Under the pieces are notes generated by a model. The model did not search any database and was not told where the DNA came from. It saw only the letters and a list, made by a program, of their open reading frames with translations. Below, piece after piece: positions 11,374 through 29,952 of a DNA stretch of 64,000 bases. The stretch covers positions 1 to 64,000 of IMG/VR virus record IMGVR_UViG_3300022932_000017; one strand, 5' to 3'. Position numbers and translations under genes: made by a program. Each line of letters opens with the position of its first letter. The first letter of the stretch is position 1. The stretch comes from a virus.

Positions 11374-14184
11374 CTATCCTATTTTTGATTTAATATTTCC
11401 TTCATACCTAAATCCCTCTCTATAATGGCCATTCGCGTTTAAATGATAACTGTCTGGTTGTCTTAATAAAGTTGTTTGAGCAGCATTATCCCAATCAAAT
11501 GTTGCTTCGCTAATATTATCCACTATGTAAATGCCATGATTTCTACAAGCTATCTTTGCAGCGTCAAAATATGATTGATAACCTATAGTTTGAGGTCTTG
11601 GGTATATGCCTATCCAAATTATTTTTATATCTGGAATTTGTGTTTGAATGTATTCAAGGCTATAATTCATAGCGCCATAAACCGTACTTTTATCAGTACT
11701 ATTTTCTGTACCTATAGGTTTGCCTTGTGCCGCATCATTCGTTAAAATATCTATTATTAGATATTTTGTATCCAATGGTATATCCGCTAATCTATTAACC
11801 ATAGGAATGCCAGAACCTCCAGTATTATCAGTTAGTAAATTACCATTTATACCTAAATTTAGATATGTCATACCATTTCTTTGCGCAATCTGATAACCAT
11901 ATACCTGATCGGCAGGTAATCCATTTCCTTTACCCATAGAATCACTAATAACCACCAACTTTTGACCAAACATGGGATTAAAACCAGATGTATTTTGATA
12001 TTCTCTTATAAAATCTATTAATTGTAATTTGTTATAGTATATAGGTTTTTGAGCACACACATATCCAACACCTAACTGTCCATTATTGACAATTGACGTT
12101 ACTAAAGACCCTGTGTTTTTCCCAGCTAATCGAGCTAACTGCTTACCTGTTTGCCCACTTCTATAGTAAAGAGAAGTGGATACATCTGACATGAATATTA
12201 AAAAATTACCAGCAGGGACAGGAATATTCACATTATAATCAAAAGTATTCGCTATTAAATTTAAACTGTACTCGGCTGTATATGTCAAAAAACTTGTACT
12301 CCCTATAAATGGATTTCTTGGATTTATTTCACCTACTACAATAGTCAGAATCGCATCTACCAAGGTTCTAATAGTCAACTGTTGAACTATCTCGTCCTCT
12401 TCAAAATACAACTCATTATCAGTCCAGTATTGATTCACAGCTACAAGAGAAGTAAAAGAGCTAGGAGTAATAGATCTAATATTTATCTCTGCATCGAGTG
12501 TTTTAGTTGTAATAGATATATCTTCTAAAGTCTCAATTTTTGAGTCTATTTCTGATTCTGAAACAGTATTATCTTCTACTAAATCTATTAACATCTCCTT
12601 TTTTAGATATTCATTAGATTCAGCCACAGTCCATCCTATACCTAATTCGGAATTAGCAACAATTTGACTTATAACCGTACCTGTTCCACTTAAAAGACGA
12701 GCTATAGTCTTTCCTGTCACTGGAACTCCATTCCTATACTTAAGTAATCCTGCTACAGTAGGCCTAAACAATAAAAATTGACCTGCACTTATGGGTATAT
12801 TTACGGCATACTTGTTAACCCCATTAACACATGGCACAGTATATGTGCCAGTAAACACTGCTATAGAACTATTAACTACAAGTGGTAAAGGAGATATATT
12901 CGCAACATATACCATCAAATCTCCTGAAACAGAAACTGGGATAGTTAATTCATTAATCACCCTTGTATTTTGAAATTGCATTAATGCACTAGTCCAAGTA
13001 ACATTTACAGTGGCATTTACGGTGTATAATTCTGGTATGATAACCCTATTATCTCCCTGACTGCTTGAGGCCGATAAAGTATCAACAGTTATTGCTTGTT
13101 GTTTGGTAACCAAAGAACTTGGTATAATTACAGGATCTCCACTCTGACTGTACAATACGCCTACATCCTCCGATGCTGATATACTTCTAGGAAAAGTATA
13201 AACACCAGTTCCCATATCAAACTGTACTATCTTAGGAGTTTCACTATTAACAGATGCAGATATGGCGTATTCCTGCCCCCCTACAGTTACAAACTTAGGA
13301 AACTGCCCCACCGAGGTTGAATCCGTAATAGTGTTTGTTCCATCAGCCACTAACCTTTTAAAAAGAGTTAGAGATTTATCAATATTTTGCTGTAAAATTG
13401 TCTCGGCAGATATAGCTCTATTAGTCTCAATGTATATAGAATCACTTAAATTTTGATCTTCTACTTCTCTATTTGAAGATTCTAAATCTAATGCATCATT
13501 AACCTCATTAATAGCAGGAACAACTTCTTTGGCCATTGTCTCTAAAGAAGCATCTTCGGATAATTGAATCGAGTATAATGGTTCTTCACCTGTTGCGTCA
13601 AATTTAAAAAATTTCAGTTTATTATCTGAATCAATGCCTATACCCCATGTATCTCCGCTTTGCAATCTTCCTCTTGTAAGATATATAATAGGTGCATCGA
13701 TATCATTATCTGTAACTGCTAATAAAGATCTTGAAATATTATCAGAAGCCATTGCTCCTTTATTACCTCCTGAAGCTACAAACCCCGGAGTAGAAACATT
13801 TGTAGCTGAAATATCACCAGTGAAATTCTGTCCAGATACAGCTGCTTTATCATCCAAAAGATCATTAGTCTGCTGTTGTGTATAATAATTTGATAGATCG
13901 GTCTCGATGAACTTTAAAACTAAGTCTTCGTCTGTAAGGCTATTTGGATCTGGCCACCAATATTCTCTAGCTCCATCTTCATCAACTAATACAGCCCCTA
14001 TAACGCCTTTTCTTTTGTTAGCAGTATCAAAGTAGCCTAATATCTCTGTAATTGAATTAAATGGTCTCTTTACGCCTGTAGTTTGATCATAGAACCAACT
14101 CTTAGCGGTATCTGGCTGTCCTGATGTAGCATACGGCTTATTAGAGCCTGTAAACATTGGATTTGATGGATTATACGTTGCCAT
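11374..14184 (-). CDS. Tail spike/fibre with internal domain duplication and C-terminal SGNH/GDSL hydrolase
   Basis: SDSM, GING, TND, DSYHLN blocks; position in tail module. Confidence 0.8.
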   Translation of the reverse strand: MATYNPSNPMFTGSNKPYATSGQPDTAKSWFYDQTTGVKRPFNSITEILGYFDTANKRKGVIGAVLVDEDGAREYWWPDPNSLTDEDLVLKFIETDLSNYYTQQQTNDLLDDKAAVSGQNFTGDISATNVSTPGFVASGGNKGAMASDNISRSLLAVTDNDIDAPIIYLTRGRLQSGDTWGIGIDSDNKLKFFKFDATGEEPLYSIQLSEDASLETMAKEVVPAINEVNDALDLESSNREVEDQNLSDSIYIETNRAISAETILQQNIDKSLTLFKRLVADGTNTITDSTSVGQFPKFVTVGGQEYAISASVNSETPKIVQFDMGTGVYTFPRSISASEDVGVLYSQSGDPVIIPSSLVTKQQAITVDTLSASSSQGDNRVIIPELYTVNATVNVTWTSALMQFQNTRVINELTIPVSVSGDLMVYVANISPLPLVVNSSIAVFTGTYTVPCVNGVNKYAVNIPISAGQFLLFRPTVAGLLKYRNGVPVTGKTIARLLSGTGTVISQIVANSELGIGWTVAESNEYLKKEMLIDLVEDNTVSESEIDSKIETLEDISITTKTLDAEINIRSITPSSFTSLVAVNQYWTDNELYFEEDEIVQQLTIRTLVDAILTIVVGEINPRNPFIGSTSFLTYTAEYSLNLIANTFDYNVNIPVPAGNFLIFMSDVSTSLYYRSGQTGKQLARLAGKNTGSLVTSIVNNGQLGVGYVCAQKPIYYNKLQLIDFIREYQNTSGFNPMFGQKLVVISDSMGKGNGLPADQVYGYQIAQRNGMTYLNLGINGNLLTDNTGGSGIPMVNRLADIPLDTKYLIIDILTNDAAQGKPIGTENSTDKSTVYGAMNYSLEYIQTQIPDIKIIWIGIYPRPQTIGYQSYFDAAKIACRNHGIYIVDNISEATFDWDNAAQTTLLRQPDSYHLNANGHYREGFRYEGNIKSKIG

Positions 14185-15037
14185 TTACTGATAATTTAAG
14201 TTTTCTATTATTTCCATCAAAGGTAAAAATCCCTGTTGAATTATATACCCCTCTTGAATTGACTATTATTCTGTCATTCATAATAAAATCAGTGCCTAAC
14301 TCCCCTTGATTTAAAGCTGTGTTATACCAGAAAAACTTTTCAGGTTCAGATTGAGGTTCGCTAATCGATATATACACATCTCCTGTCAAGACCTCTAAAG
14401 GGAACTCCACTTCATAACTTGTAGCTCCTGCAACGATACTTTTAGAACCTTGATAAGCAAATGTAGCAGGGTTGATAGGGGAAGAACTATATCCGAATAA
14501 TATTGTGATGTTGTTTGCTGTAACAGTAAGTTTAACTGTATCGCTCGCAGTTAGCCCATTACCATCTGTAACTGTAATCTTGAACTCGTATTGACCCAAA
14601 GGCATACCTCCAATAGTACCGCTTACTGTTAATTGAGAAGTGGTGGTTCCTGTCATTAGAACGCTACCACCACTTACTTTAGTCCACAAGTAAGATGTAA
14701 TAGGTGCCGAACCTTGAGTAGCTACAGCGTTGAATACTGCACTCTGACTAGCTTGTTTTGTTTGGTCGGCTCCTGCGTTAACTGTCGGAGGATACTTGAT
14801 AACAGCACTTCCAATAATTAACAACATCTCTGTGTATAGTTTTTCTGTAATGTCACTAGGTACAGTCTCTACCGTAACTCTATAATTTAAGCTATCAATG
14901 ATGTACGACAAGCAATCATAGTCTCTAGGTTTGCAACCACATCCGCTTTTAAGTTCTGCTACCCATTGATCTGTCAACACAAGGTAAACCCCTTCTGCCC
15001 GATCTAAATCCGTTATAATTTCTGCTATAGTACTCAT
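14171..15037 (-). CDS. Structural protein with PKD/Ig-like domain
   Basis: PTVNAGADQT...YLWTKVSG...GQYEFKITVTDGNGLTASDTVKLTV. Confidence 0.8.
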   Translation of the reverse strand: MSTIAEIITDLDRAEGVYLVLTDQWVAELKSGCGCKPRDYDCLSYIIDSLNYRVTVETVPSDITEKLYTEMLLIIGSAVIKYPPTVNAGADQTKQASQSAVFNAVATQGSAPITSYLWTKVSGGSVLMTGTTTSQLTVSGTIGGMPLGQYEFKITVTDGNGLTASDTVKLTVTANNITILFGYSSSPINPATFAYQGSKSIVAGATSYEVEFPLEVLTGDVYISISEPQSEPEKFFWYNTALNQGELGTDFIMNDRIIVNSRGVYNSTGIFTFDGNNRKLKLSVNGNV

Positions 15038-15361: not shown

Positions 15362-18300
15362 TCAGTCTTTCTCTTGAAGCCCTTTTCTAGTTTCCTCTAT
15401 TTTCTGTTTGGCTTCTTTAATCTTTTCCTTCCTTTCTGCATCACTAAGTGGTTTATCACTTTCAGCATCGGGAGTAAGACCTAAGTAGTTTACAAACCCA
15501 TCCCTGTAGAAACTGTTCCAAAAGCTTTTAGTAGAATAGTCAGGAGAGATCTGCGGTTGTCCTGTAACGCCTCTATAAATATTTTGAACCTGTCTACCGA
15601 ATCTATAAGGTATAATAGGTAAAGAGGTTTTACTTCCTAATACATCTCCGGCATATCCTCCTGCTTTCTTTAAATCTCCTTCTGTAGCTGCTTCAATACT
15701 TTTCACCACCTTAGCCCCATCATCAAATGCTGCTACTTTCTGGTTTAGAATCTGTTGCATGAATTTACCCATCTTCTTGTCTTCTAAAGCAAGTAAGAAA
15801 CTTAAAGCAGGAGGTGAAATTACATTGAAGTACTTCTTAGCCCATTCGTTCTTTTTAAGCCAACCTGCGAGGTCTTTATCCTTTCCAGATGATATTGTCG
15901 CACCCGCAGCTAGTAAAGAGACTGTAGCCCCTATAAATACTCTTCCAGCTGTACTCTTAGCTTTAGCTTCACTCATTAAAGCATACTCCATGTCCTTAAT
16001 TCCTTTTTCAGTAGTCAAATCAAGCTTTCTTCTCTTTACAAAGTTCTCTAAAGGACTCCAAGCATCAACTCCTGCTTTTTGAAGCGTAAGTGTAACCCAA
16101 TTACTAGCACCACCGACAAAAGGATTTAGAATGTTCTTTGATAAGATTGAAGTGAACGTAAGCATTGCAGCCTCATTCCACCTTTTCTCTTTAATGGCAT
16201 CTTTCAATTTACCTTCATTGTACGAGTTTAACAATCCTACAGTCCTAGAAGCAAAGTTATTCGCCTCATGCCCCATACCTAGACCTGCAACCGTATATCC
16301 TGCCCTGTAAGAAGCTTCAATCTGATCTAAGGTTAACTTCTCTCCTACAACCAAAGCCTCCTTTACAATGTCCATAGCAAGCCTGTTCGTAAACTCTTTG
16401 TTCTCCGGCAGAGTCTTTTTACCTGACAGCCTGTTTACCTTTTCAATAATCTCGTTAGCCGTTACAAGTGCATCACTAAACTTCTGTCCTGTAAGATTCT
16501 CCGATACATACTGCACCGCTTCATCCTGCCCCATACGCTTAGGGTTGTTCTTGTCTGTAAGCACCTTTATAAGGTTTCTAGTGAAGTACTTTTCAGTTAG
16601 GTTAGCTTTATTCAAACCATCCATGCCCTCTAAATAGATACGTCCTAAGATGCCTGATACAACAGCATGATATTTTCTGCTTGTCGAAACATTGTTGATG
16701 TAGTTCTCTGTAGCACTTTTCACCAAGAACGGATTTGATATGTCTCCATAGTCTAGTCCGGCATTGTAGATAGCATCCTTTAACACATTTCTTCCGGCAT
16801 CCCTTCGTTGTTTCTCTAATGCCTTTGTATCGTTCTTTTCAAATGCAAACGTTAGTTTGTTAAACGTCCTTTCAATATATCCACTAAGCGTGTTATCTCC
16901 AAGCTGTTTTACTGTGGTTAAAATAGCACGTTGAGCCATACTCAAATACTCTTGAGTGATTTTAGCTGCTTTAAAAGCACCATTACTCTCATTCCAAGCT
17001 ACCTTACTCAATAACTGCTCTATCTGGTGGTTAATTTGATTTACTGCACTATTTAGCCCAAACTCGTTAATCACCCTACCATCGCTTCTTGACTGATACA
17101 ACTCTGATAAACTCTTAGCAAGTACTTTAGCTTGAAAGAATGCCTCCTGACCAATACCATTAAGTCCAATAGCATTATTCATCAGGTAATCATACGTATC
17201 ACTGTTCTTCTCAAACAAACCGTAGTTATACAATTCTGCTAATCTCTTTGCTGTAGTCTTAGTGTTTGTCTTAGGCTTCTCTGTATTGCGTGTTTCTAGC
17301 TCTTTTAAGCCCTTTTCTATTACAGAGGCACGTAAGTCATTGTATTCCTTTTCAAAGCTGTCCTGTAGCCTGTCAATCTCTACATCAGAATAGCCTTTAT
17401 CCTTTAAGACTTTAGCTACATTTTCCTTCATCCGGTCAATACTACCTTCTTCTCCGGCTAGTTTCTTCCAATCTAAAGTTTGTGTTTTCTCTTTACGCTC
17501 CACCACATTGCCATTGGCATCAGTCTCTTTACGTGTAACTGTAATCTCTCTGCCATAGCCCGACTCAATCAAGGCTTCTTTCACGAATATTTTAGGCGTA
17601 GGGTCTAATTGCTCAAGAACTTCTAATGCAGCTTTCCTTTCTCCTTTTAACCTATTGATTTCAGGACTCTCTATTGGGTCTTTCTTCGCTTCACGTTCCG
17701 CTTTCTCCCCTTTAGCAATCTGATCGTTTAAACGTTCCAAGTCATTCTGCAATTTCTTTACTGCCGTAGCCTTCATACGCTCGTCTACAATCGCTTTACT
17801 CTCCGAAGTAAGGTATTTCATCGCCTCACGTTTATAAGCGGATTCTTCGGCTTGTAATGACTGTAATTCAGGATCAGTTAATCTGCTGGTTGCTTTGAGT
17901 TCAACTTTCTTATCTGCTATCTGCTGTTTAAGGTCTTCAATGCGCTTTCTGATGTTCTCTTTAGCATCAGCTAACTTTTCAGCATCACTCTTAACTTTAC
18001 CTCGCTTAGTGCCGGATTCAGTATCAATGTTCTCTTCTTTGAAACCATCAAGCATATCCTTTCTAAAATCGTCTTCCTTAGCCCATTTCTTTTGAGTCTC
18101 CTTGATTTTATTTATACCAAGCTCAATAGCATCAGCAATGTTTACTCCGGCCTTTATAGCGGCTTTAATGGTAGTTATCCCTGCATCAATAATAGCAACC
18201 GGAACACCTATACTAGCATCGTAAGTTTTACTTCTAAGTTTCTTCTGAATCTTGTCTAGTGCCGCAATAGCTTTGTCTGCCGCTTCCCTACGCTTAGTAG

Positions 18301-21300
18301 GTAGTTTCTCGTAAAGACTGTTTACTTCCTTCTCTACTCCTTTAGCAATAGCATTTTCAATATCAGGACTCAACACATCTACAGCATCAGTTTCAATTGA
18401 TTGTGCTTCCTTATTAATCGCATCAGGACTAGCTTCAATGCTTTTTTCAATAGTAGCTTTCTCTTGCCTTTGAGCGGAACTAAAAAACTCCTTGGTAATT
18501 TGACCCATATCATAAGCCGCTCGCGCAGCCTGTCTGAATCTACCATAACCAATAGCAATAGCAGCAGACCTTTGAAACTTAGTAGATATATCCCTTACAT
18601 ACTTTAATTGCTTGTTTACAGCTACTTCATTCTCTGGTTCTGCTAATATCCTTCTCTCAAGCTCATTCTCTAGGGATACAGTAATTAAACTTCGCTTATC
18701 TACAGGAAGCTTATTCTCTTCAACATACTCCATAAGTTTAGTGGCATATTCGTCACCAAACTCTTTTTTAGCATTTTGAACAATATCATCCCCATGCTGA
18801 AAATCAATAAGGCTGTCTTTCCGCTTGTACTCTTTCTCCGAAGCATCTAAAGTCCTTCCTGTCTCACGCTCTACGTTGTTTAAAGTATTACGGATTTCAT
18901 CAGTCTCTAGGTTCTTATTAACCAACTCAACAAACTTGTTGCTTACTTTTCCTTTGGCGGGTTCTGCTTGCTCTGTTTTACTTCCTGTATTTTCTTTTGC
19001 ATTTGTTCCTCCGTCATTTCCGGTTGGTTGTATAGTTTCCGCAATAGGTTCAGCTTGTTGTTCGATTGCTCTTCTTTCATGTTCGATAAAATCATTTGTT
19101 GTTAATTCTTCGTTTTTAAATTCATTTTCAAATTGTGTAGTCTCTTCCGTTGTTAAATTCTCTGCTTTAATCTTAGAGGCGCTATCTGCCAATACATCAT
19201 CAAACCTAGTTTTAAGTTCATCAAATTGTTTGGTAGTAATCTCTCCCTTACTCTTAGCCTCCGTAAGTCTTTTTAATGATGCCTCTGCTTTAAGCGTTTT
19301 ATTAGCTACTTGTTTTAAGGCTTTAAGGTCATCCTCCGCTTTGTCTAAGACTTCTTTAGTTCTTTCCGGTGATACACTCTCTTGAGCCACATTCTCTTGT
19401 GCAGGTACAGGTTGTTCAACTTCATTTGTGCCTTGTTTTAATTTTTGGTCATTTTCTAAATTAACAGGATTCCTTATTTCAGTTTCTTTAGGTTTATATT
19501 CCGTTACTAATATATCTCTTGATCTTCCACCATCAAATGCACCAACAATACCTTCTGACTCCATCTGATCCATTATCTCTTTCGCCCTCTCGTAGCTTAT
19601 ATTCAATTTTTTACTTAAAACAGCTATAGAACTATCTTTAGATTCCACAACTGTTTTTGCTGCTTCATCAAATAATGGGTCTAGTGTTCTAGGCGTCTCT
19701 ACAGCAGATGAAGGCTTATCCTGCACAACTTCATTTTCTTTTTCAAAATCATAAACTTTAACATTAATACTAGTTTTACCGCTCTGTATGTCATTAGCTA
19801 TCCTATGATGCCCATCTAACACATAATATTTATCACCTTCTTTTAATAAAGCAACATCTTCTGTAGGATTATTTTGGTTTTTAGTTCCTCCTAATTTATC
19901 AGCTTGTAGCGATTCTTGAGTTGGCACTATATCATTAATATCAACTATCTGCTTCGATTCTTCATAACCTGAATTATCGCCCTCTTTTGACTTACTCCGT
20001 TGTTCTTTAATAAGTCTATTTGCTTTTAAAACCTTTTCACTAGTTGCTTGGCTTATTTTATTTTTAAAAATATTTTCAGAAGGTATTTTATTATCAACCT
20101 GTTTCTCTCTTACTGTAGTGTTACCGCCTACTTCTGTATTAATAACCTCTTGTGGAACTTCTGGCTTGCTTCTTTCAGTCTGTTCAAGATTGTATCTTTC
20201 CTCTGTAATTTCAACAGGTTTCTCTTTACCGATCTGTTTAGTGTAGGTTCCTTTCTCTTCATCAAAGCTATACTTGGTTTTAAGACCTGTAGCAAGCTCT
20301 CTAAGCTTATCATTAGACTGATCGATCTTATTCTCTAAAGCAATCTCTTCGGGTAGTTTAATCTCTCCTAATGCAGGGTCGGTAGGAGTCTTCGTAGATT
20401 TAACATTATCCAAAGCTTCCTGCATCTCATTACGCCCTGTAATCAAATCCACTCCTTCATCAAATTGTTTAGGGGTAAATTGTTCCGGTAACTTAGACAC
20501 AGCATCAGCAATAACCATAGCTTGCTTTTGAGTGTTTGCTATCTCTTCTGGTTTCCACCCTTGCTTAGCGCCTAACACACCAACATCTTCAATTACCTTG
20601 GCGACATTTTCAGGACTCCTGTCAGCTTTAACAGCATCAATAACCATATTCTTATACGGAGACTTGCTAAACATCATCCCTACATCTTGCCTCATGCCAA
20701 GACCCGCAAAGATTGGCGCATCTTCCGTAAGTATCTTTCCAATCGTATCACTCATTTCTTGAGGACTTTGCGCCTGAAAGGCTTCCGACTCATTTACATC
20801 ATTAGCTTTTTTCTTTAACTCATTATCCACATACGCTAGTGCCGTTAAATCAAGTGAGGTATTACGATAAGCCTTGGCGCCTTTATTTAAGAACTCTGGA
20901 ATCTTCTTAGCAATACTCACACTTTGCTGTTTCATGGCATTAGCGATACTCTCTGCTGTAATAGCCTCTCCTGAATCAACCAAACCCTTCATAGCATTAA
21001 CAGTAGCTTGTCCGGCTAAGTCGTCTCTAACCGCAGCAGGAAGCTTATTAAATAATACATGTGAGTTAAGCGCTTTCATCAACGTGTAATCAGTAATCAT
21101 TTTGCCAACTCTATACAGGTCATCAGCACCATTCTTAAACTCTACACCATTCTTTTTAGCCTCACGAATCTCTTTATCTGCTGTTCCCGCTCCATTCATA
21201 GCGAAACTCATTCCCCCTGTAGCCTCTGCGCTAAGCATAGCAGGAACAAACTCTGCAAGTGAACCTACAGCCCTATCTACAGGAGTGAAGCCCCTAAAAT

Positions 21301-21883
21301 TATCCTCAAGTCCCATAGATGTTTTTTCTTGAGCTTTATCAAAAAATTCATTGTTTATCTTTTCTTCTTCGGGAGTATAATCTTCACCACCTAATACTTT
21401 TCTTCTTAGAAGGTCTGCCGCAGACAATACGCCTTCTCCAAGATTTACAGCACCTCTAGCAAGTCCCCTTCCAATAATCTTAGTGATTCCCTCCATTCCG
21501 GTCTGTACACCGCCCCAATAAGTATCCCCGTATTTCTTTTTATAGGATTCTAACTTATCGTTAATGACCTTTTCTTCATCTACCGAAGTATCAGGATTTT
21601 CTATGCGCTGTTGAGCAGTTAATTTAGTAGGATCTACCCTATAGTTAGCAGCAGTCTGTTCTTGAACTGTTATAGGTTTGTATGCTCCTAAAGCAGTCAA
21701 GTCTAGTTTTACTTTAGGAGTCTTTACAGGTGTTTGTCTTAGTTCTTTTGGTTGAACTGAAAATGATTCGTCTTGCAGGTTATTAGCCGCCTGTAATATA
21801 TTAGTACTTTGGAAAGGCTTTGAGCCACTTCCAGATGTTTGAACACCACTCTTTGAAACGGCTGAACCCCCCCCCAGCCCCAT
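15362..21883 (-). CDS. Giant putative internal virion/ejection (polyvalent) protein with ParB/Srx-like and FtsK-gamma-like domains
   Basis: 2173 aa, helical and K/E/A-rich, third of three genes after the nozzle; YVLDGHHR; LDPLFDEAAK...ISYERAKEIMDQMESEGIVG. Confidence 0.8.
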   Translation of the reverse strand: MGLGGGSAVSKSGVQTSGSGSKPFQSTNILQAANNLQDESFSVQPKELRQTPVKTPKVKLDLTALGAYKPITVQEQTAANYRVDPTKLTAQQRIENPDTSVDEEKVINDKLESYKKKYGDTYWGGVQTGMEGITKIIGRGLARGAVNLGEGVLSAADLLRRKVLGGEDYTPEEEKINNEFFDKAQEKTSMGLEDNFRGFTPVDRAVGSLAEFVPAMLSAEATGGMSFAMNGAGTADKEIREAKKNGVEFKNGADDLYRVGKMITDYTLMKALNSHVLFNKLPAAVRDDLAGQATVNAMKGLVDSGEAITAESIANAMKQQSVSIAKKIPEFLNKGAKAYRNTSLDLTALAYVDNELKKKANDVNESEAFQAQSPQEMSDTIGKILTEDAPIFAGLGMRQDVGMMFSKSPYKNMVIDAVKADRSPENVAKVIEDVGVLGAKQGWKPEEIANTQKQAMVIADAVSKLPEQFTPKQFDEGVDLITGRNEMQEALDNVKSTKTPTDPALGEIKLPEEIALENKIDQSNDKLRELATGLKTKYSFDEEKGTYTKQIGKEKPVEITEERYNLEQTERSKPEVPQEVINTEVGGNTTVREKQVDNKIPSENIFKNKISQATSEKVLKANRLIKEQRSKSKEGDNSGYEESKQIVDINDIVPTQESLQADKLGGTKNQNNPTEDVALLKEGDKYYVLDGHHRIANDIQSGKTSINVKVYDFEKENEVVQDKPSSAVETPRTLDPLFDEAAKTVVESKDSSIAVLSKKLNISYERAKEIMDQMESEGIVGAFDGGRSRDILVTEYKPKETEIRNPVNLENDQKLKQGTNEVEQPVPAQENVAQESVSPERTKEVLDKAEDDLKALKQVANKTLKAEASLKRLTEAKSKGEITTKQFDELKTRFDDVLADSASKIKAENLTTEETTQFENEFKNEELTTNDFIEHERRAIEQQAEPIAETIQPTGNDGGTNAKENTGSKTEQAEPAKGKVSNKFVELVNKNLETDEIRNTLNNVERETGRTLDASEKEYKRKDSLIDFQHGDDIVQNAKKEFGDEYATKLMEYVEENKLPVDKRSLITVSLENELERRILAEPENEVAVNKQLKYVRDISTKFQRSAAIAIGYGRFRQAARAAYDMGQITKEFFSSAQRQEKATIEKSIEASPDAINKEAQSIETDAVDVLSPDIENAIAKGVEKEVNSLYEKLPTKRREAADKAIAALDKIQKKLRSKTYDASIGVPVAIIDAGITTIKAAIKAGVNIADAIELGINKIKETQKKWAKEDDFRKDMLDGFKEENIDTESGTKRGKVKSDAEKLADAKENIRKRIEDLKQQIADKKVELKATSRLTDPELQSLQAEESAYKREAMKYLTSESKAIVDERMKATAVKKLQNDLERLNDQIAKGEKAEREAKKDPIESPEINRLKGERKAALEVLEQLDPTPKIFVKEALIESGYGREITVTRKETDANGNVVERKEKTQTLDWKKLAGEEGSIDRMKENVAKVLKDKGYSDVEIDRLQDSFEKEYNDLRASVIEKGLKELETRNTEKPKTNTKTTAKRLAELYNYGLFEKNSDTYDYLMNNAIGLNGIGQEAFFQAKVLAKSLSELYQSRSDGRVINEFGLNSAVNQINHQIEQLLSKVAWNESNGAFKAAKITQEYLSMAQRAILTTVKQLGDNTLSGYIERTFNKLTFAFEKNDTKALEKQRRDAGRNVLKDAIYNAGLDYGDISNPFLVKSATENYINNVSTSRKYHAVVSGILGRIYLEGMDGLNKANLTEKYFTRNLIKVLTDKNNPKRMGQDEAVQYVSENLTGQKFSDALVTANEIIEKVNRLSGKKTLPENKEFTNRLAMDIVKEALVVGEKLTLDQIEASYRAGYTVAGLGMGHEANNFASRTVGLLNSYNEGKLKDAIKEKRWNEAAMLTFTSILSKNILNPFVGGASNWVTLTLQKAGVDAWSPLENFVKRRKLDLTTEKGIKDMEYALMSEAKAKSTAGRVFIGATVSLLAAGATISSGKDKDLAGWLKKNEWAKKYFNVISPPALSFLLALEDKKMGKFMQQILNQKVAAFDDGAKVVKSIEAATEGDLKKAGGYAGDVLGSKTSLPIIPYRFGRQVQNIYRGVTGQPQISPDYSTKSFWNSFYRDGFVNYLGLTPDAESDKPLSDAERKEKIKEAKQKIEETRKGLQEKD

Positions 21884-22019
21884 CGGTGATGGAGCTTTTA
21901 TATTCTGGATACTTTACTAACATCTTATCTGCTAACTCTGTATCGTCTACATCCTTGTACTCTGGATATTTCTCTTTTATTTTTTGAGCAAACTGTTGCT
22001 TGGTTACTTTATCAGGCAT
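21801..22019 (-). CDS. 72-aa ORF, probable true N-terminus of the giant protein via frameshift
   Basis: AT-rich leader 10 nt after upstream stop; KYPEYK twice; overlaps the giant ORF across G9. Confidence 0.7.
   Translation of the reverse strand: MPDKVTKQQFAQKIKEKYPEYKDVDDTELADKMLVKYPEYKSSITDGAGGGFSRFKEWCSNIWKWLKAFPKY
21867..21875 (-). repeat. G9 homopolymer, candidate slippage site
   Basis: C9 on + strand inside the ORF overlap. Confidence 0.85.
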
Positions 22020-24023: not shown

Positions 24024-24944
24024 TTAGCGTGTTCCAATTTTACTCGGTATACTGTTCACCGCAACGTTCTTCAACCGTAGTATTCCGTTCTCTGTAGTCA
24101 CAAGTTCGATTACAATATAAGTCCCTTTAAGGTCGTCTCCGTTAATAATATCTACATTCTTATCTTTCATAAACGAAGCACTAAACACACCTTCTACACT
24201 ATAAATATCCACTTGGTCAACTCCATCATCCATTACATCTTTCAGAAAGTCATATTCAATTAATTCTGATACCTGACCCAAACTTGTAGAAATACCATCA
24301 ACACTTGTTATCATCAGCATATTACCCTCGTAAGATAAGCTTTCAAATGTTTTAGGCTGTCCTTCATTTCCATTAGCAGTGAATTTTATCAGTGTTTTAT
24401 ATTGCATACCATAATATCTGTTTCTGCCTTCAATAGAAGCCTTGTGAGCGTATAACTGCCCAGACTTGAATGTATATAGGTTTGTGAACAACGAAAAGCC
24501 TGTATCGAAGTTTAACGGCTTAAAACAACTCCATTTATTGTTCTTTTCCGACCATGACAAAGTGTTCTTCTGTTTTAGGCTCGTATCCTCTACTGTATCG
24601 CTAATTGTAAAGGAAGTCAGTTTAAGGTTAGCGTTAGAATAAACCGTAAGTATAGGGTCACTACCTGTAGCTGTAATGGTTAGATTTACAAAACCCGGAG
24701 TGGTTCTATTTGCGGATGCCGCTGTTCCTGCATTAACCCTGAAAAATCCTGAATTTATATACTCCAAACTATAACTAATCTGATAAGTATGTCCAGAAAT
24801 CAAAGGATAATTTCTTAAAGTCATCTGCCCTGCATTACATACCTCATGTATAGCGTAATCCTCGAATATAGTCCAACCAAATGACTTGCCTAATGTGAGC
24901 AAGTCTAAAGTGATCGGTGTGTTCTGTAGTGTTGTAAAGCTCAT
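24024..24944 (-). CDS. Tail protein resembling the C-terminal part of a nozzle/stabilisation protein
   Basis: TLSWSEKNNKWSCF...LYTFKSGQLYAH...NRYYG...KTFESL. Confidence 0.6.
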   Translation of the reverse strand: MSFTTLQNTPITLDLLTLGKSFGWTIFEDYAIHEVCNAGQMTLRNYPLISGHTYQISYSLEYINSGFFRVNAGTAASANRTTPGFVNLTITATGSDPILTVYSNANLKLTSFTISDTVEDTSLKQKNTLSWSEKNNKWSCFKPLNFDTGFSLFTNLYTFKSGQLYAHKASIEGRNRYYGMQYKTLIKFTANGNEGQPKTFESLSYEGNMLMITSVDGISTSLGQVSELIEYDFLKDVMDDGVDQVDIYSVEGVFSASFMKDKNVDIINGDDLKGTYIVIELVTTENGILRLKNVAVNSIPSKIGTR

Positions 24945-24945
24945 A

Positions 24946-27900
24946 TTATGTAAAGATTACTTCTGCTGTTAATGTTGTTTTATTATACCGTATAACCCCT
25001 ACTTTATAAGAGTTTGCAGGTGTATGTGTGCTATTGTGTATAGTAGTGTTTAATAGCCTAGTATCGCTAGATACCGTAACACCACCTGTATTTACGATAT
25101 TCGTCCCTACCTTACTCATAGTCCCTCCTTTATAAGTAACAACCTCTAAAGTGAAGTCACCAGAAGCAACCGAACCATACCAGACACAATACAATCCAAC
25201 TTCAACGATATTAGGACTTGAAGGAAAGTCTGTCACAAACTTTAATATGTTAACCAAAGCTCCTTCTATACCTTGTGGAGCAGCGCTTGAATTGGTATCA
25301 TCTAAACCCCACCACAAGTAAGCATTTGATTCAGGAGTTGTGCCAGAAAGGACAGTATCATCAACATTCCCAAACCCAACAAATATATTATCAATAGTAG
25401 GCGTATCATTATTTTCAAATTGAACTTGAATATCTAAATCACTCCCCGCACTAGGGTAATCCCAAAGGAACCTAGCTACCAAGAAGTCAAAGTCAGGAAT
25501 TAAAATGGTTGTGCCTGTATTTACATTAAAGATTCCGTCTACACCACCTATCGTTAAAGTTGTAGAAGTAGTTGTATCTTCTGTTGCAGAACTTGTCTGT
25601 CTAACTTGTACAGTTTGTCCATTACTCACGTTTCCCGCAGCCGATGTATAAGCCCCTCCATTGATTCTATACTCGCCACCTGTAATAGTTGTTGGTGAAG
25701 GTGCCCCAAGCCCTGTAATAGTTACAATATTCGATTCATAAACCGTAGATAATTCAGCATCACTAATATCAATAAAATCAAAAGGATCGGGTTCTGTATC
25801 GGTCTTAGTTTTAGCATCAAAAGAATCTGAATAACCTCCTACGGTAAGAACAGAACTCGTTGTTGTATTATAAGAGGCACTTGTAGTTTGTCGAACCTCA
25901 ATCGTATCTCCTGCATTAACATTTCCCGCTATATTTGTCCATGCGCCTCCGTTAATCCTATATTCACCTCCTGTTATGCTTATTGGCGCCGGAATAGTAT
26001 TTCCTCCAATCAATATAGAGTTAGAAATTACAACAGTACTTAGCTCCTGATTAATCAAATCTATAAAGAAGAATGAATTTACATCAGTGCTTCCGGCAGT
26101 AATCGTTCCACATACATTGCTTTGAATAACGTTTTCTCCAATCTCAAAAGAGAAGATAAACCCTACTGACCCTGTATAGTCTGTTTCAGGAGTAAATACC
26201 GCTTGTCCTGTAGTTGTGTTGATAACTACGCTTCCATGATTGGAACTAACCAATAGTAATGTCGAAGGATCAATCCCAAAGTCAAACTGATATTGCCATG
26301 TAGAACTATTGAATTTAAAGCTCGTCACAATGCCACCTAACGTTTCAATGTGTATCGTATACTCTTCGTTGTAATTATCAAATAACCCATATATCTTTTT
26401 ACCATCCTTCTTAGCTTGTTGTAATACCCTCATAAAGAACTTGGACATTTTAACTGCTATTGGTGCCACACCATTATATCCATCCCGTATAGGCAATGAA
26501 TTATTTGGGTCAACAAAGTATATTGTTCCATTCCTAGACTTCACAAAGCTTTCCTTAGCGGTGCCTATCCCAAAGCTACCTGACTGCAAGTATCTGGCTT
26601 TATTCAAAAGCTTATCGGAGATTGCTACATTCTGATTCTCTGCCTGATCTTCTAAAATTGAAATGTTAACAGGAATATGAATTAATTTCAACTCTTGAAT
26701 ACATACTAAGTATGAATCTCTTTGGCTAAGCACTCCAATAGCTCCGAACTGTGAAGAGGTTTCTCCTGCTCCATCACCATAAATACGCTCTCCATAAAAC
26801 CTAGAAATGCCATTCACCCTGCTTCCGGTAATAAATGTATCAGAATATCTTATAGAAGCTTTCTTTCGTGTCTCTTCCTGTTCATCGTTATAGAGTCTTG
26901 GCCTTCCATAGGAGTAGTAATTAGATTTATAAAAGTCACTGAAATTAAAATCTTCAACAAGGAAAGTATAAGGGATGTTAACATCGATATTGCTTACAAG
27001 ATTTCTTGTTTTAAAATACGCATCAGCTTCTCTTATAACTCCTGACTTAACGGTATAGTCTCCATTCTGAATAAGTATCTGCTCTCCTATTTCATAAAAT
27101 AATGTAGAAGTTTCCGAAGTTACACCATCATTAGTTTCTGTTCTTTTCTTTGGTGAATATATCTCTAAAAGGACTTCTTTACCTGTTATGTCTGCAATAT
27201 TTATAGATGCTGACTTTCTAACCTTAAGATTATACTTGGTTGTATTAGGATCTACACTAGTATCTACCACAATATCTAACCCCACAACTTCAACGTCTAT
27301 AGCAGGTGCATCAAACCATTTTACAGGAGTAGATGTGCTCCCTGTAAACGTAAACATAAATGTACACCTATCTCCAACAGAATAGTCATAACTTAAAATT
27401 GAAGAAGAATTGACTTGGTTAAATCTTAAAAGCGAAGTTATATTAAAAACTAAATAATCATCATTGGATAGAAAAGCATCCAAGGCACCATTAATATATA
27501 AGTCCGTAGCGTGTGTATTATTAAAAGAAATCAACCACTGTGCACTTTCTGCTCCGGCAGGAGGTAGACTATTTATCTGCCAACTTATTTGAGGAATAAA
27601 ACCATGTGTCTGCGCGTACGATGGGGTCTTAATCATAAATCTCTTATCACTGACAATAGGAAAGTAATTCCCTGCACCTTTGTAATGTGCTAAAGCCAAT
27701 TGATAGGCCGAATTTAATTTTATACTATGTATAGATTTTGACACTCCCGTTCCGGCATTCTGTAAAGTAACTGTTGCATATGAAAGCTCAAAATAAGGGT
27801 CGGTCTTTATATATAATGCGAAAGGAGTGGTATTACTGTTGGGTATACCAATAGAAAATGAATTTATTGCGGATATGGTATCGTTGTTTTGAGTTATAGG

Positions 27901-29187
27901 GACTGTATAAGAATAGTTTTGAGTTACTGAAAAATCCCTTAAATCCCTCAATTGAACGTTAAAAACATCTCCCGTTTTAGCAATCCCATCATACCCTATA
28001 GTAACGTTTCTTCTGTGTCCTCCTGCATTACCATCATCATAAGCCTTAGTGACCCTTAAATAATCGTATACAGGAGGATCGTTTTCAATTTGAGGGTCAT
28101 ATACACTCACTGATAAATTAACATCAACTACAGGTCTATTTTCTCCTTCTGTAAGGTCTCCTAACGTAAGAATGCTACCATTGATTACTTCTAATGCTCC
28201 TGCTCTTTTAGGAACATAATCATAAGGTAAATCAGTTTCTAATACAGGTATGTTGTTGTATAACCCATCATTATAAAAAGCAAACGAATAAATATTTGTA
28301 GCAGGGTCATAAGCCTCGTAAATCTCTTGTGAAACATCTACCGTAGTATTAGGCAAACTAACAATATCTTTCCTGTCTACAGACTTCACCAAAAACCAAT
28401 CTAAGTTGTCATACCTAGCACCTACATTTATTGTTTTCACCCTGTCATTACCCGCATCTACAGAGACAATCAAGTTATTGGCTTTAGTTACATCCGTTCC
28501 TATTGCAGGAGTAGGTTCATCACTAGGAACATTTCTTTTTGAATATGTACTCCACGCACTATATTCATCATCTAACCTGATAAACTGCTCTGTGAATTGA
28601 AATAAACGCTTCTGGATAAGGTTTACCGATCTTCCGGCATCATCACCATACACATAAGTTGGAAGCTTTATTGGTTGACCTTTCAGTAGTGTAATATCCT
28701 CTTGCAGTAAAATCCCGTATCCCCCACTTTTAAGCCTTTCTAAGTTGATTATTCCCGGCTGTATATTGTCAGCATTAAAGATTAAATACTTGCCCTGTAA
28801 TAGCTTTATTTGATTTACCGAATATTTAGGGTCTAAAGGCAGAATATCTACATTACCGCTATCCGTAATATTCTCGAAAATGACTGTTTCAGTTTCAGTA
28901 TCATAATCAAACTCTGTAATTTGGTTTAGCTTAGATGAATTATAAACAAAAGAATAAGCTTTCCTTGCATCATCAAAACTTGCAGTGCCCAATGTTTTGT
29001 TTAACCCTGATGGTTTAGCGCCTGATATAAGCTCATTTGACTCCATACTAGTACCATCACCATCCTCTTGTTCTACAGTTCCGGTAACACGAAGGTTGAA
29101 TGCCTCTAGGTAATCGTTTGGCGCTATATCCTGAATAGCACTATCGCTATCCATACCGCCTCCTTTAAATTTCTTTATTTCCTGCAT
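24946..29187 (-). CDS. Tail nozzle/stabilisation protein (P22 gp10 / crAss muzzle-like) with C-terminal repeat domains
   Basis: GGMDSD..PNDYLEAFNLR N-terminus, IRYSD, FGAIG, YFVD; follows ring genes. Confidence 0.75.
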   Translation of the reverse strand: MQEIKKFKGGGMDSDSAIQDIAPNDYLEAFNLRVTGTVEQEDGDGTSMESNELISGAKPSGLNKTLGTASFDDARKAYSFVYNSSKLNQITEFDYDTETETVIFENITDSGNVDILPLDPKYSVNQIKLLQGKYLIFNADNIQPGIINLERLKSGGYGILLQEDITLLKGQPIKLPTYVYGDDAGRSVNLIQKRLFQFTEQFIRLDDEYSAWSTYSKRNVPSDEPTPAIGTDVTKANNLIVSVDAGNDRVKTINVGARYDNLDWFLVKSVDRKDIVSLPNTTVDVSQEIYEAYDPATNIYSFAFYNDGLYNNIPVLETDLPYDYVPKRAGALEVINGSILTLGDLTEGENRPVVDVNLSVSVYDPQIENDPPVYDYLRVTKAYDDGNAGGHRRNVTIGYDGIAKTGDVFNVQLRDLRDFSVTQNYSYTVPITQNNDTISAINSFSIGIPNSNTTPFALYIKTDPYFELSYATVTLQNAGTGVSKSIHSIKLNSAYQLALAHYKGAGNYFPIVSDKRFMIKTPSYAQTHGFIPQISWQINSLPPAGAESAQWLISFNNTHATDLYINGALDAFLSNDDYLVFNITSLLRFNQVNSSSILSYDYSVGDRCTFMFTFTGSTSTPVKWFDAPAIDVEVVGLDIVVDTSVDPNTTKYNLKVRKSASINIADITGKEVLLEIYSPKKRTETNDGVTSETSTLFYEIGEQILIQNGDYTVKSGVIREADAYFKTRNLVSNIDVNIPYTFLVEDFNFSDFYKSNYYSYGRPRLYNDEQEETRKKASIRYSDTFITGSRVNGISRFYGERIYGDGAGETSSQFGAIGVLSQRDSYLVCIQELKLIHIPVNISILEDQAENQNVAISDKLLNKARYLQSGSFGIGTAKESFVKSRNGTIYFVDPNNSLPIRDGYNGVAPIAVKMSKFFMRVLQQAKKDGKKIYGLFDNYNEEYTIHIETLGGIVTSFKFNSSTWQYQFDFGIDPSTLLLVSSNHGSVVINTTTGQAVFTPETDYTGSVGFIFSFEIGENVIQSNVCGTITAGSTDVNSFFFIDLINQELSTVVISNSILIGGNTIPAPISITGGEYRINGGAWTNIAGNVNAGDTIEVRQTTSASYNTTTSSVLTVGGYSDSFDAKTKTDTEPDPFDFIDISDAELSTVYESNIVTITGLGAPSPTTITGGEYRINGGAYTSAAGNVSNGQTVQVRQTSSATEDTTTSTTLTIGGVDGIFNVNTGTTILIPDFDFLVARFLWDYPSAGSDLDIQVQFENNDTPTIDNIFVGFGNVDDTVLSGTTPESNAYLWWGLDDTNSSAAPQGIEGALVNILKFVTDFPSSPNIVEVGLYCVWYGSVASGDFTLEVVTYKGGTMSKVGTNIVNTGGVTVSSDTRLLNTTIHNSTHTPANSYKVGVIRYNKTTLTAEVIFT

Positions 29188-29190
29188 AAT

Positions 29191-29952
29191 TTAGCTCTTG
29201 GCAACAAGTTTATTTCCTGATCTGGCAACGTCCTGTAATTCGTTCAAAATAAAAGGGTTCATTCGCATCTTAGTTAATCTTTTGGCGTTGTAATACTCTG
29301 ACCTCATAGACATAACTTCATTCCTTCCGTATTTCTTTCTTTGTCCGGCAGCATCTTTCCACTTCATATAAAGAGACATTGCCTCTGCGGCTCTAATGTC
29401 AATAACAAAATCTCCATCTTCTTCTACGTATCCATTAGACAAGTACTCAAGTAATATCTCCTGTTGGCTGTTTCGAGGGTCTAGGAAGATTAATTTCTGA
29501 CCATTATCTACTTTATACTCACCGTATGTTGCAGTGCCGCTATCAGCTCCAAACAACCTGTAAGAAGCACCATTGAAATAATAGTTGTGGTAATAGTCAT
29601 TATCGTAAGGATACCCATACCCGTCCACCGTAGTAGAAGATATAATTCCCTTAGTCCTGTTAAAAGGATTTGTATTTAATGTAGATAGTTGTGAGTTCCT
29701 TTTATACGTCAAAACTTCCCCTCTACTATTAATCTGTCCTATCTTAGAATACTGAATGTAGTCACAAGGCAGTTCAACTGTTTTGTTAGGTAGTATCGGT
29801 AGTAACACTGTTTTAAATGTGCCAGTAACATCTAAGTTAAACTCTGTCTCTAGTCCCCATTTAGCGATATTATATAGCCTTAAAAACTGATGTGAAGACA
29901 AATCATCAGTGTTCAAATGGTTAGCTACGATTTTTTTAAGTCCAATATTCAT
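29191..29952 (-). CDS. Tail ring/adaptor protein
   Basis: ELPCDYIQYSKIG, ILLEYLSNG; position. Confidence 0.7.
   Translation of the reverse strand: MNIGLKKIVANHLNTDDLSSHQFLRLYNIAKWGLETEFNLDVTGTFKTVLLPILPNKTVELPCDYIQYSKIGQINSRGEVLTYKRNSQLSTLNTNPFNRTKGIISSTTVDGYGYPYDNDYYHNYYFNGASYRLFGADSGTATYGEYKVDNGQKLIFLDPRNSQQEILLEYLSNGYVEEDGDFVIDIRAAEAMSLYMKWKDAAGQRKKYGRNEVMSMRSEYYNAKRLTKMRMNPFILNELQDVARSGNKLVAKS

Follow-up and report, generated by a model that had tools for sequence, protein, structure and literature searches.

The giant gene and its cassette

We examined a stretch of 64,000 nucleotides (positions 1 to 64,000, hereafter the window) of the IMG/VR virus record IMGVR_UViG_3300022932_000017, which is 73,820 bp long and has a CheckV completeness of 100%. 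On the minus strand, an open reading frame (ORF) at 15362-21883, taken from the ORF list with its translation, encodes a protein of 2173 amino acids (aa), here called P0001. The giant ORF sits between the gene for a 1413-aa virion structural protein and the tail-fiber genes, and within it a cassette encodes a predicted ParB/sulfiredoxin-fold (ParB/Srx) domain followed by an FtsK gamma winged-helix domain. A preliminary description of the locus had placed these two domains in a low-complexity linker of a giant ejection protein and had suggested that they orient or pull the phage genome or recruit XerCD for its circularization or integration. Both peptide strings that it quoted are in frame in this ORF (IVDINDIVPTQ...DGHHR at aa 646 to 694 and LDPLFDEA...GGRSRDILV at aa 734 to 793), and PHROG and Pfam matches of the neighboring genes agree that the gene belongs to a virion-structure block. 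The label "ejection protein" fits that gene position, but it is deduced from position and analogy and is not an observation.

The cassette lies at 19427-20090 (minus strand), with borders set by blastn against a sister phage, IMGVR_UViG_3300022918_000001 (L014). It comprises 664 nt in frame, encodes 221 residues (aa 598 to 819), and contains no stop codon within the 6.5-kb ORF. The sister phage encodes the closest homolog of P0001 (P0002), which is 91 to 92% identical to it and lacks query residues 596 to 809 on the BLASTP map. In DNA, the alignment with L014 (89% identity) breaks off at gene nt 1793 and picks up at nt 2458, and L014 has a 100-nt acidic/proline linker (rich in Glu, Pro, and Val) in place of the 664 nt. 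The GC content of the cassette is 32.1%, compared with 38 to 40% in the flanks. Its exact start is the motif NKIPSENIFKN (aa 598 to 608; 20060-20092, minus strand), which a consensus match shows to mark the N terminus of the ParB-like module; the motif fits the consensus PKIP..VF.N of small stand-alone proteins (alignment A1) and also matches LPKVPTKNVFVN in the homolog P0017. Because the cassette starts with the upstream motif of the family, the insert holds the whole ParB-type module together with gamma. No repeats bracketing both cassette junctions were found, only short two-copy matches. The ParB/Srx and gamma domains are one discrete in-frame insertion/deletion unit that includes NKIPSENIF, and the low-complexity linker setting given earlier has to be replaced by this one. 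JGI/IMG and Logan each list the identical cassette-bearing protein; its protein cluster has two further members, which cover only aa 1370 to 2173. A search of viral contigs with the cassette as the query found no relative.

On either side of the cassette, BLASTP maps a conserved carrier module, and we refer to the two modules together as the scaffold. The N-terminal module (aa 11 to 595; 20099-21853, minus strand) is 92% identical to P0002 and 36 to 54% identical to P0003, P0005, P0006, and P0021 to P0023; it has no Pfam, PHROG, or PDB match. The C-terminal module (aa 820 to 2173; 15362-19426, minus strand) has its best-conserved core at about aa 1000 to 2135, where 13 homologs (alignment A3) have in common the invariant residues GHE(A)NN at aa 1871 to 1876 and NPFVGG at aa 1920 to 1925. 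Neither module has a Pfam, PHROG, or PDB relative, also when a scaffold profile was compared with the PDB, and judged from its sequence the C-terminal module is a dark but strongly constrained set of domains. In the ESM Atlas, the scaffold lies closest to clusters of viral hypothetical proteins; among clusters with a name, LPD38 comes nearest (score, 0.93), a resemblance that we treat as a weak lead only. FtsK_gamma was the sole Pfam domain detected in the whole 2173-aa protein at E ≤ 1. We also considered a crAss-type virion RNA polymerase and rejected it: the protein lacks a DxDxD motif and is not similar to anything in cultured crAss-like phages.

The scaffold has 24 homologous proteins (1233 to 3166 aa), which share up to about 1,350 residues of the C-terminal module, while the N-terminal module is shared by a subset. 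All 21 related IMG/VR loci contain a giant ORF (1262 to 3183 aa; 1944 to 3183 aa in 19 of them).

The start of the giant ORF has an unusual junction. A 72-aa ORF (MPDKVTKQQF...ITDGAGGG; 21884-22019, minus strand) ends in a run of nine G immediately before the giant ORF, to which it would be fused by a +1/-2 shift at this run. At the equivalent junction, the sister phage (about 6740 to 6830 of L014) has a run of nine A after a nonhomologous short ORF, MEEEDLLLPPPPKK, in the same relative frame, and more distant homologs of the giant protein have N termini that are 30 to 85 aa longer. These runs could be sites of programmed or transcriptional slippage or of phase variation, or they could be homopolymer sequencing errors.

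The ParB/Srx domain and its family

The minimal ParB/Srx domain was delimited with a family profile and an AlphaFold2 fold to aa 646 to 713 (19745-19948, minus strand) and contains the motifs PTQ (19916-19924) and DGHHR (aa 690 to 694; 19802-19816). Pfam models of ParB were subthreshold or silent in the phage copy: ParBc_2 (PF08857) scored 16 to 17 bits against a cutoff of 23.6, ParB_N (PF02195) did not match at E ≤ 10, ddrB-ParB (PF18763) did not match at E ≤ 10 in an hmmscan of the cassette or in a six-frame search of the genome, and PF23719 did not match. An exhaustive HMMER search with aa 640 to 734 returned 189 cluster-representative relatives at E ≤ 1e-3, and relatives also match PHROG "ParB-like" families. 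In an alignment of 63 small relatives and the query (A1; 64 sequences), the G and R of DGHHR are invariant, T, Q, D, H, and H are at least 90% conserved, and the PKIP..VF.N motif is found upstream.

When the family profile was compared with the PDB, it matched Helicobacter pylori ParB (4umk), SerK, sulfiredoxin, 1vk1, and SbnI, with nothing convincing outside this superfamily, and the DGHHR loop aligned with the identical DGHHR of SerK and 1vk1. An AlphaFold2 model from the 64-sequence alignment reached a mean confidence (pLDDT) of 81; a single-sequence model of the cassette (pLDDT, 42) was discarded in its favor. With Foldseek, at least the top 30 hits were all sulfiredoxin, ParB, Noc, SerK, SbnI, or KorB (probability, 1.00; E of about 1e-4), and with VIA-align ranks 1 to 11 were all of the ParB/Srx type (Z, 9.6 to 6.7; sulfiredoxin, SerK, PadC, SbnI, Atu1540, KorB, and pNOB8 ParB). 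The modeled structure thus predicts a ParB/Srx fold for aa 646 to 713. The earlier assignment to this fold is upheld by the family alignment, the AlphaFold2 model, and the two fold searches, but not by the Pfam ParB models.

The conserved Gly...Arg phosphate-binding loop of the superfamily (GxxR; GCHR in sulfiredoxin and DGHHR in SerK) is present as DGHHR. PTQ aligns with the catalytic position E30 of SerK (Q in the mutant chain that was aligned) and resembles box I of ParB, in which a Gln is needed for cytidine triphosphate (CTP) hydrolysis. The predicted fold matches both the minimal members of the superfamily, namely, sulfiredoxin (3cyi and 6ky4), the ADP-dependent serine kinase SerK (5x0b), SbnI (5ujd), and 1vk1/ParBc_2, and the CTPase domains of ParB, KorB, and Noc (7bnk, 6sdk, 8qa8, and 7nfu), with which the cassette also shares the order of a ParB/Srx head followed by a helix-turn-helix-type domain. 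Unlike other ParB/Srx members, the module in P0001 carries the family-specific upstream motif PKIP..NVF. Unlike canonical ParB, the cassette has a head of about 70 residues without CTP-pocket helices and has no dimerization domain. The hallmarks of a partition ParB were likewise not found: the genome has no match to a ParA-type ATPase (AAA_31) at E ≤ 1, and the domain sits inside a protein of 2173 aa; no search for parS was made.

Part of the family is captured by PF23719 ("Antitoxin VapB-like"), which is matched by 40 of the 64 aligned relatives, most of them below the cutoff, and above the cutoff by the giant protein P0057 (30.2 bits against 27). We found no paper mentioning this accession, and the name "VapB-like" is at odds with the ParB/Srx fold that is predicted. 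The 189 representatives define a compact and widespread ParB/Srx module (PKIP..NVF, PTQ, and DGHHR) that is missed by current Pfam ParB models and partly covered by PF23719.

The FtsK gamma domain and its contact surface

The gamma domain (aa 734 to 794; 19502-19684, minus strand) is tethered to the ParB/Srx domain by about 20 residues and includes the recognition helix ISYERAKEIMDQME (19559-19600, minus strand). Its identity, proposed earlier from the letters, is firm: Pfam PF09397 scored 66.1 bits with the whole protein, 70.3 bits with the excised piece, and 71.9 bits at 19502-19684 (minus strand) in a six-frame search of the genome, all well above the cutoff of 30.6. By phmmer it matches the solved gamma structures 2j5p, 2j5o, 2ve8, 5dcf, and 2ius over about 60 residues (E, 4e-9 to 5e-8); these are E. 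coli and P. aeruginosa FtsK gamma domains and a XerD-gamma fusion. Identity to cellular gamma domains is 36 to 52%, and the best tblastn bit scores to these come from FtsK of Bacteroidota, the presumed host phylum (67 to 62 bits). A word-index search found no longer proteins with this gamma, and a scan of genome contigs returned only Lachnospiraceae and Alphaproteobacteria FtsK gamma domains, none with a ParB part.

While the phage domain is a clear sequence member of the cellular FtsK/SpoIIIE gamma family (PF09397; 2j5p, 2ve8/2ve9, and 5dcf), its setting differs from that of cellular FtsK. It stands in the middle of the protein rather than at the C terminus, without a membrane domain, a linker, or the alpha/beta ATPase motor to which gamma is joined in a functional FtsK/SpoIIIE translocase. 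The FtsK_SpoIIIE motor (PF01580) has no match at E ≤ 1 in the giant protein or in the 73.8-kb genome; therefore, there is nothing to "pull" DNA, as had been proposed. Motor-detached gamma domains are also found in a terminase small subunit (TerS) fusion of Bacillus phages Sam46 and Sam112 (PMC8190038), in single-domain phage ORFs, and in PHROGs 13700, 22882, and 6152. In Sam46 and Sam112, the partner domain is the small terminase and the DNA-binding residues are reported to be highly conserved with host FtsK (PMC8190038), whereas in P0001 the partner is a ParB/Srx domain in a giant virion-block protein and the contact residues are changed. A side observation concerns MT839334.1 ("Bacteriophage sp.," human gut), where a 323-aa ORF (L005:2671-3639) has an N-terminal hydrophobic segment and an internal gamma domain at aa 111 to 170; its C-terminal region looks, by eye only, like the core of an Mrr-type restriction endonuclease. 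Going by its sequence, this ORF would be another motorless use of gamma.

In E. coli FtsK, N1296, R1300, and E1303 (and E1306) are required for recognition of the FtsK-orienting polar sequences (KOPS) (PMC2533119 and PMC2680272), and the XerD contacts are Q1288, R1289, R1292, I1293, G1294, and N1296, with the R1289-E184 pair being critical (PMC5052618, Table 1). We compared the phage domain with 14 gamma sequences: E. coli FtsK, four named Bacteroidota FtsK proteins (PLSDB records), Lachnospiraceae and Alphaproteobacteria FtsK proteins, and, from "Bacteriophage sp." contigs, two FtsK-like ORFs and one gamma-nuclease-like ORF. Several of these comparators are near identical, and they include Bacteroidia FtsK in place of Flavobacteriia FtsK or XerD. 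Among them, Q1288, R1289, and G1294 are invariant, N1296 occurs in 12 of 14, and R or K at 1300 occurs in all 14. The phage domain has S, K, N, I, S, and E at positions 1288, 1289, 1292, 1293, 1294, and 1296 and E at 1300; it keeps D at 1303 and E1306, together with the hydrophobic core and the wing arginine. At 21 columns the comparators are at least 85% conserved, and the phage domain keeps 15 of these, including the hydrophobic core. The six altered columns (S1285A, Q1288S, R1289K, G1294S, N1296E, and R1300E) are concentrated on the contact surface, affecting 5 of 8 conserved KOPS/XerD contact columns but only 1 of 13 other conserved columns (Fisher P = 0.014). The otherwise invariant LQR...IGYNRAxR accordingly reads LSK...ISYERAKE in the phage, and its recognition helix SYERAKEIMDQME is net acidic. 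The phage gamma therefore does not carry the residue set with which E. coli FtsK reads KOPS and activates XerD.

The genome was also searched for the sites on which such a domain would act. No strand-polarized 7- or 8-mer survived Bonferroni correction genome-wide, and skewed 6-mers flip with gene orientation. No dif-like site was found at ≤3 mismatches, using a consensus that is of the proteobacterial type only, reportedly that of Carnoy and Roten from 2009. The whole 73.8-kb genome contains no integrase, which extends what had been noted for the window.

Distribution of the domains and variability of the slot

Gamma is absent from the relatives. At E ≤ 1, a 15-sequence gamma hidden Markov model (HMM) found it in none of the 24 scaffold homologs and in none of the best 150 of the 189 ParB-module carriers (the query P0001 aside; the other 149 are P0026 to P0174), and it was found in none of the 21 related IMG/VR loci. 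The tandem of ParB and gamma was not seen in any of the 174 other proteins compared. Among the scaffold relatives, a single lineage has the ParB module, which occurs by itself in 1 of the 21 related loci (L022) and, again without gamma, in the homolog P0017. Among the best 150 carriers, 41 proteins are at least 1000 aa long with the module internal, and 79 are shorter than 300 aa, most with the domain ending 1 to 5 residues from the C terminus. HMMs of the N-terminal, middle, and C-terminal parts of the scaffold did not match any of the 149 other carriers, so in this respect P0001, with its unrelated scaffold, is unlike them.

The central region that holds the cassette is filled differently elsewhere. 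In the homolog P0006, the same region carries ART-PolyVal (PF18760). Two other giant proteins with the ParB module also carry such domains, namely, P0027 (LPD38, LPD5, LPD3, LPD1, and ART-PolyVal) and P0057 (ART-PolyVal). The central slot is swappable between phages.

The cassette is missing from a sister phage with 89% identity and from all other relatives, and it is therefore no core part of delivery, circularization, or integration; a check of homologs had been proposed with the earlier idea, and this is its result. Taken together, the lack of polar k-mers, a dif-like site, an integrase, ParA, and the contact residues, along with the absence in the sister phage, argues against a cassette that reads KOPS, activates Xer in the canonical way, or belongs to the core of delivery.

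Interpretation and alternative explanations

Polyvalent proteins, as described by Iyer, Burroughs, Anand, de Souza, and Aravind (2017, J Bacteriol 199:e00245-17), have genes that adjoin virion genes; their ParB/Srx domains are probably nucleoside triphosphate (NTP)-regulated DNases without a role in partitioning, and FtsK winged helix-turn-helix domains are "infrequently occurring" in them (PMC5512222). P0001 is likewise giant, multidomain, and encoded beside virion genes. It combines at least two unrelated effector or nucleic acid-binding domains (ParB/Srx and gamma) in one large phage polypeptide of 2173 aa, the domain content differs between its homologs, and P0006 and other ParB-module carriers bear ART-PolyVal and LPD domains. 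We therefore favor, with moderate confidence, the reading that P0001 is a phage polyvalent protein with an accessory cassette, a probably injected, NTP-dependent DNA-targeting module, and the best explanation includes horizontal acquisition of the two-domain cassette. We infer packaging and injection from gene position and analogy, and DNA binding and NTP use are put forward in the same conditional sense. Read in this way, P0001 adds one more case to a class that has been described before, the polyvalent proteins, and does not establish a new kind of system.

Under this polyvalent-protein reading, the conserved N- and C-terminal carrier modules would probably be packaged and delivered with the DNA, and the central slot between them would present different early-acting effector domains in different phages. 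After entry into the cytoplasm, gamma may serve as a general or respecified DNA-binding (or partner-binding) anchor, positioning an NTP-dependent ParB/Srx activity on DNA at the start of infection. That activity could be DNA nicking, NTP-gated DNA binding, or phosphotransfer, with DGHHR as the putative phosphate-binding loop, as in SerK, SbnI, and sulfiredoxin, and with PTQ at the place of the catalytic residue of SerK (E30) and of the catalytic Gln of ParB. The order of a ParB/Srx domain followed by a helix-turn-helix domain mirrors ParB, KorB, and Noc, which suggests an NTP-gated DNA-binding or nicking unit. The cassette would be accessory, contributing to fitness or host conflict outside the delivery machine.

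It is important to note several points that weigh against this reading. The presence of the giant protein in virions and its injection are predictions from the position of its gene in the structural block. By Pfam (E ≤ 1), P0001 has no LPD, MuF, zincin MPTase/peptidase, or ART signature domain, and because of this the link to polyvalent proteins rests on its homologs and on the other module carriers; moreover, its ParB domain is not of the DdrB-like ParB family that occurs in the polyvalent proteins of PMC5512222. Among cultured INPHARED phages, the giant protein has no homolog except for gamma-only matches, and one contig is the only known source of the allele with the cassette. The ParB/Srx domain is short (about 70 residues) and does without the C-terminal helices by which true ParB completes its CTP pocket, so that nucleotide binding is only putative. 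Finally, with a net acidic helix and without R1300 and N1296, DNA binding by gamma may be weakened, in which case the "DNA anchor" would be wrong.

A more specific form of the proposal seems unlikely to us, namely, that the cassette is a virion-delivered "mini-ParB" in which gamma replaces the helix-turn-helix of ParB behind a ParB/Srx nucleotide switch. Such an NTP-gated DNA-binding or clamping unit would be silent in the nucleotide-free capsid and, on meeting cytoplasmic NTP, would seize or tag DNA, either the incoming genome or that of the host, through a new specificity on the gamma helix (SYERAKE compared with GYNRAxR).

We give very little credence to the original idea that an injected gamma reads polarized KOPS-like motifs and/or activates host XerCD to orient, circularize, or integrate the genome. 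The gamma fold is genuine, its best cellular scores come from FtsK of the presumed host phylum, the key XerD salt-bridge residue R1289 is conservatively K in the phage, and isolated gamma is reported to be able to activate XerD in E. coli (PMC3130261). However, Q1288S, G1294S, N1296E, and R1300E all fall on the surface shared by KOPS and XerD. The genome offers neither polar 7- or 8-mers, a dif-like site, an integrase, nor an FtsK motor, and neither the sister phage nor any of the 21 related loci has the cassette. A rewritten functional surface over a retained core is a pattern that repurposed domains show, and it would suit a decoy that titrates a host partner (XerD, TopoIV, or another gamma-binding factor) or blocks a defense built on an FtsK-like translocase, with the ParB/Srx domain modifying the partner. 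DGHHR is identical in the kinases SerK and SbnI and near the GCHR of sulfiredoxin, enzymes that act on small molecules or proteins and not on DNA, and a ParB/Srx domain that acts as a phosphotransferase on a protein is among the alternatives for the same part. We nonetheless consider the decoy improbable, as the genome context suggests no particular target or partner and the XerD-contact changes argue against canonical XerD binding.

It is also doubtful, in our view, that the cassette is a mere passenger or spacer, that is, a recent insert, neutral or in decay, which the linker tolerates and whose domains are relics without a role in infection. The sister phage manages without it, its allele comes from one contig only, the functional surface of gamma is degraded relative to that of cellular gamma domains, and the ParB copy is subthreshold for every Pfam ParB model. 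Against decay, the near-invariant residues of the ParB family (PTQ, DGHHR, and KIP..NIF) are all intact, the conserved gamma columns are largely kept (15 of 21, as given above), and a 664-nt insert has stayed in frame and free of stops in a 6.5-kb ORF.

Two phages about 89% identical in DNA that differ by an in-frame 664-nt cassette are effectively a natural knock-in/knock-out pair, and they offer a clean natural example of phages swapping early-acting effector domains in a giant carrier protein. The known picture of polyvalent proteins is unchanged by it, with one well-delimited case added. Because the fold is kept while the KOPS- and XerD-contacting surface is rewritten, the presence of a gamma domain in a phage should not by itself be taken to mean KOPS reading or Xer activation.

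Genome and gene neighborhood

The portal (34756-37245), the large terminase (TerL; 37273-39456), virion structural proteins (29191-29952 and, for the 1413-aa protein, 24946-29187), tail fibers, and the giant gene form one long co-oriented late/structural block, annotated with PHROGs and Pfam. The nearest relatives by TerL are Flavobacterium, Cellulophaga, Tenacibaculum, and Maribacter podophages. Because the TerL is only about 26% identical to these Flavobacteriia podophage terminases, the virus is a distant uncultured phage, probably of marine type and with a marine Flavobacteriia host, as its sequence suggests.

Upstream of the giant gene, a 306-aa protein (24024-24944, minus strand) has a weak, subthreshold match to the C-terminal domain of the Crassvirus muzzle protein (22.8 bits against a cutoff of 27), a hint that this 74-kb podovirus of the Flavobacteriia type may have a tail built like that of crAss-like phages. 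Downstream, the block continues with a PKD-domain protein (14171-15037) and a 936-aa tail fiber (11374-14184, minus strand). The C-terminal GDSL/SGNH lipase-acylhydrolase domain of this fiber scores above the cutoff (35.9 bits), and by sequence the fiber is probably a receptor-deacetylating esterase.

Farther along, a 527-aa DNA methyltransferase (44052-45635, minus strand) has a middle part, aa 239 to 433, that matches a PHROG endonuclease family. Beyond the window, the genome encodes an adenylosuccinate-synthetase-like protein (L002:4574-5656, corresponding to genome positions 67573-68655), whose Pfam Adenylsucc_synt match of 122.7 bits covers only profile positions 1 to 275 of 416, and a NinG-like protein is encoded at L002:9853-10452.

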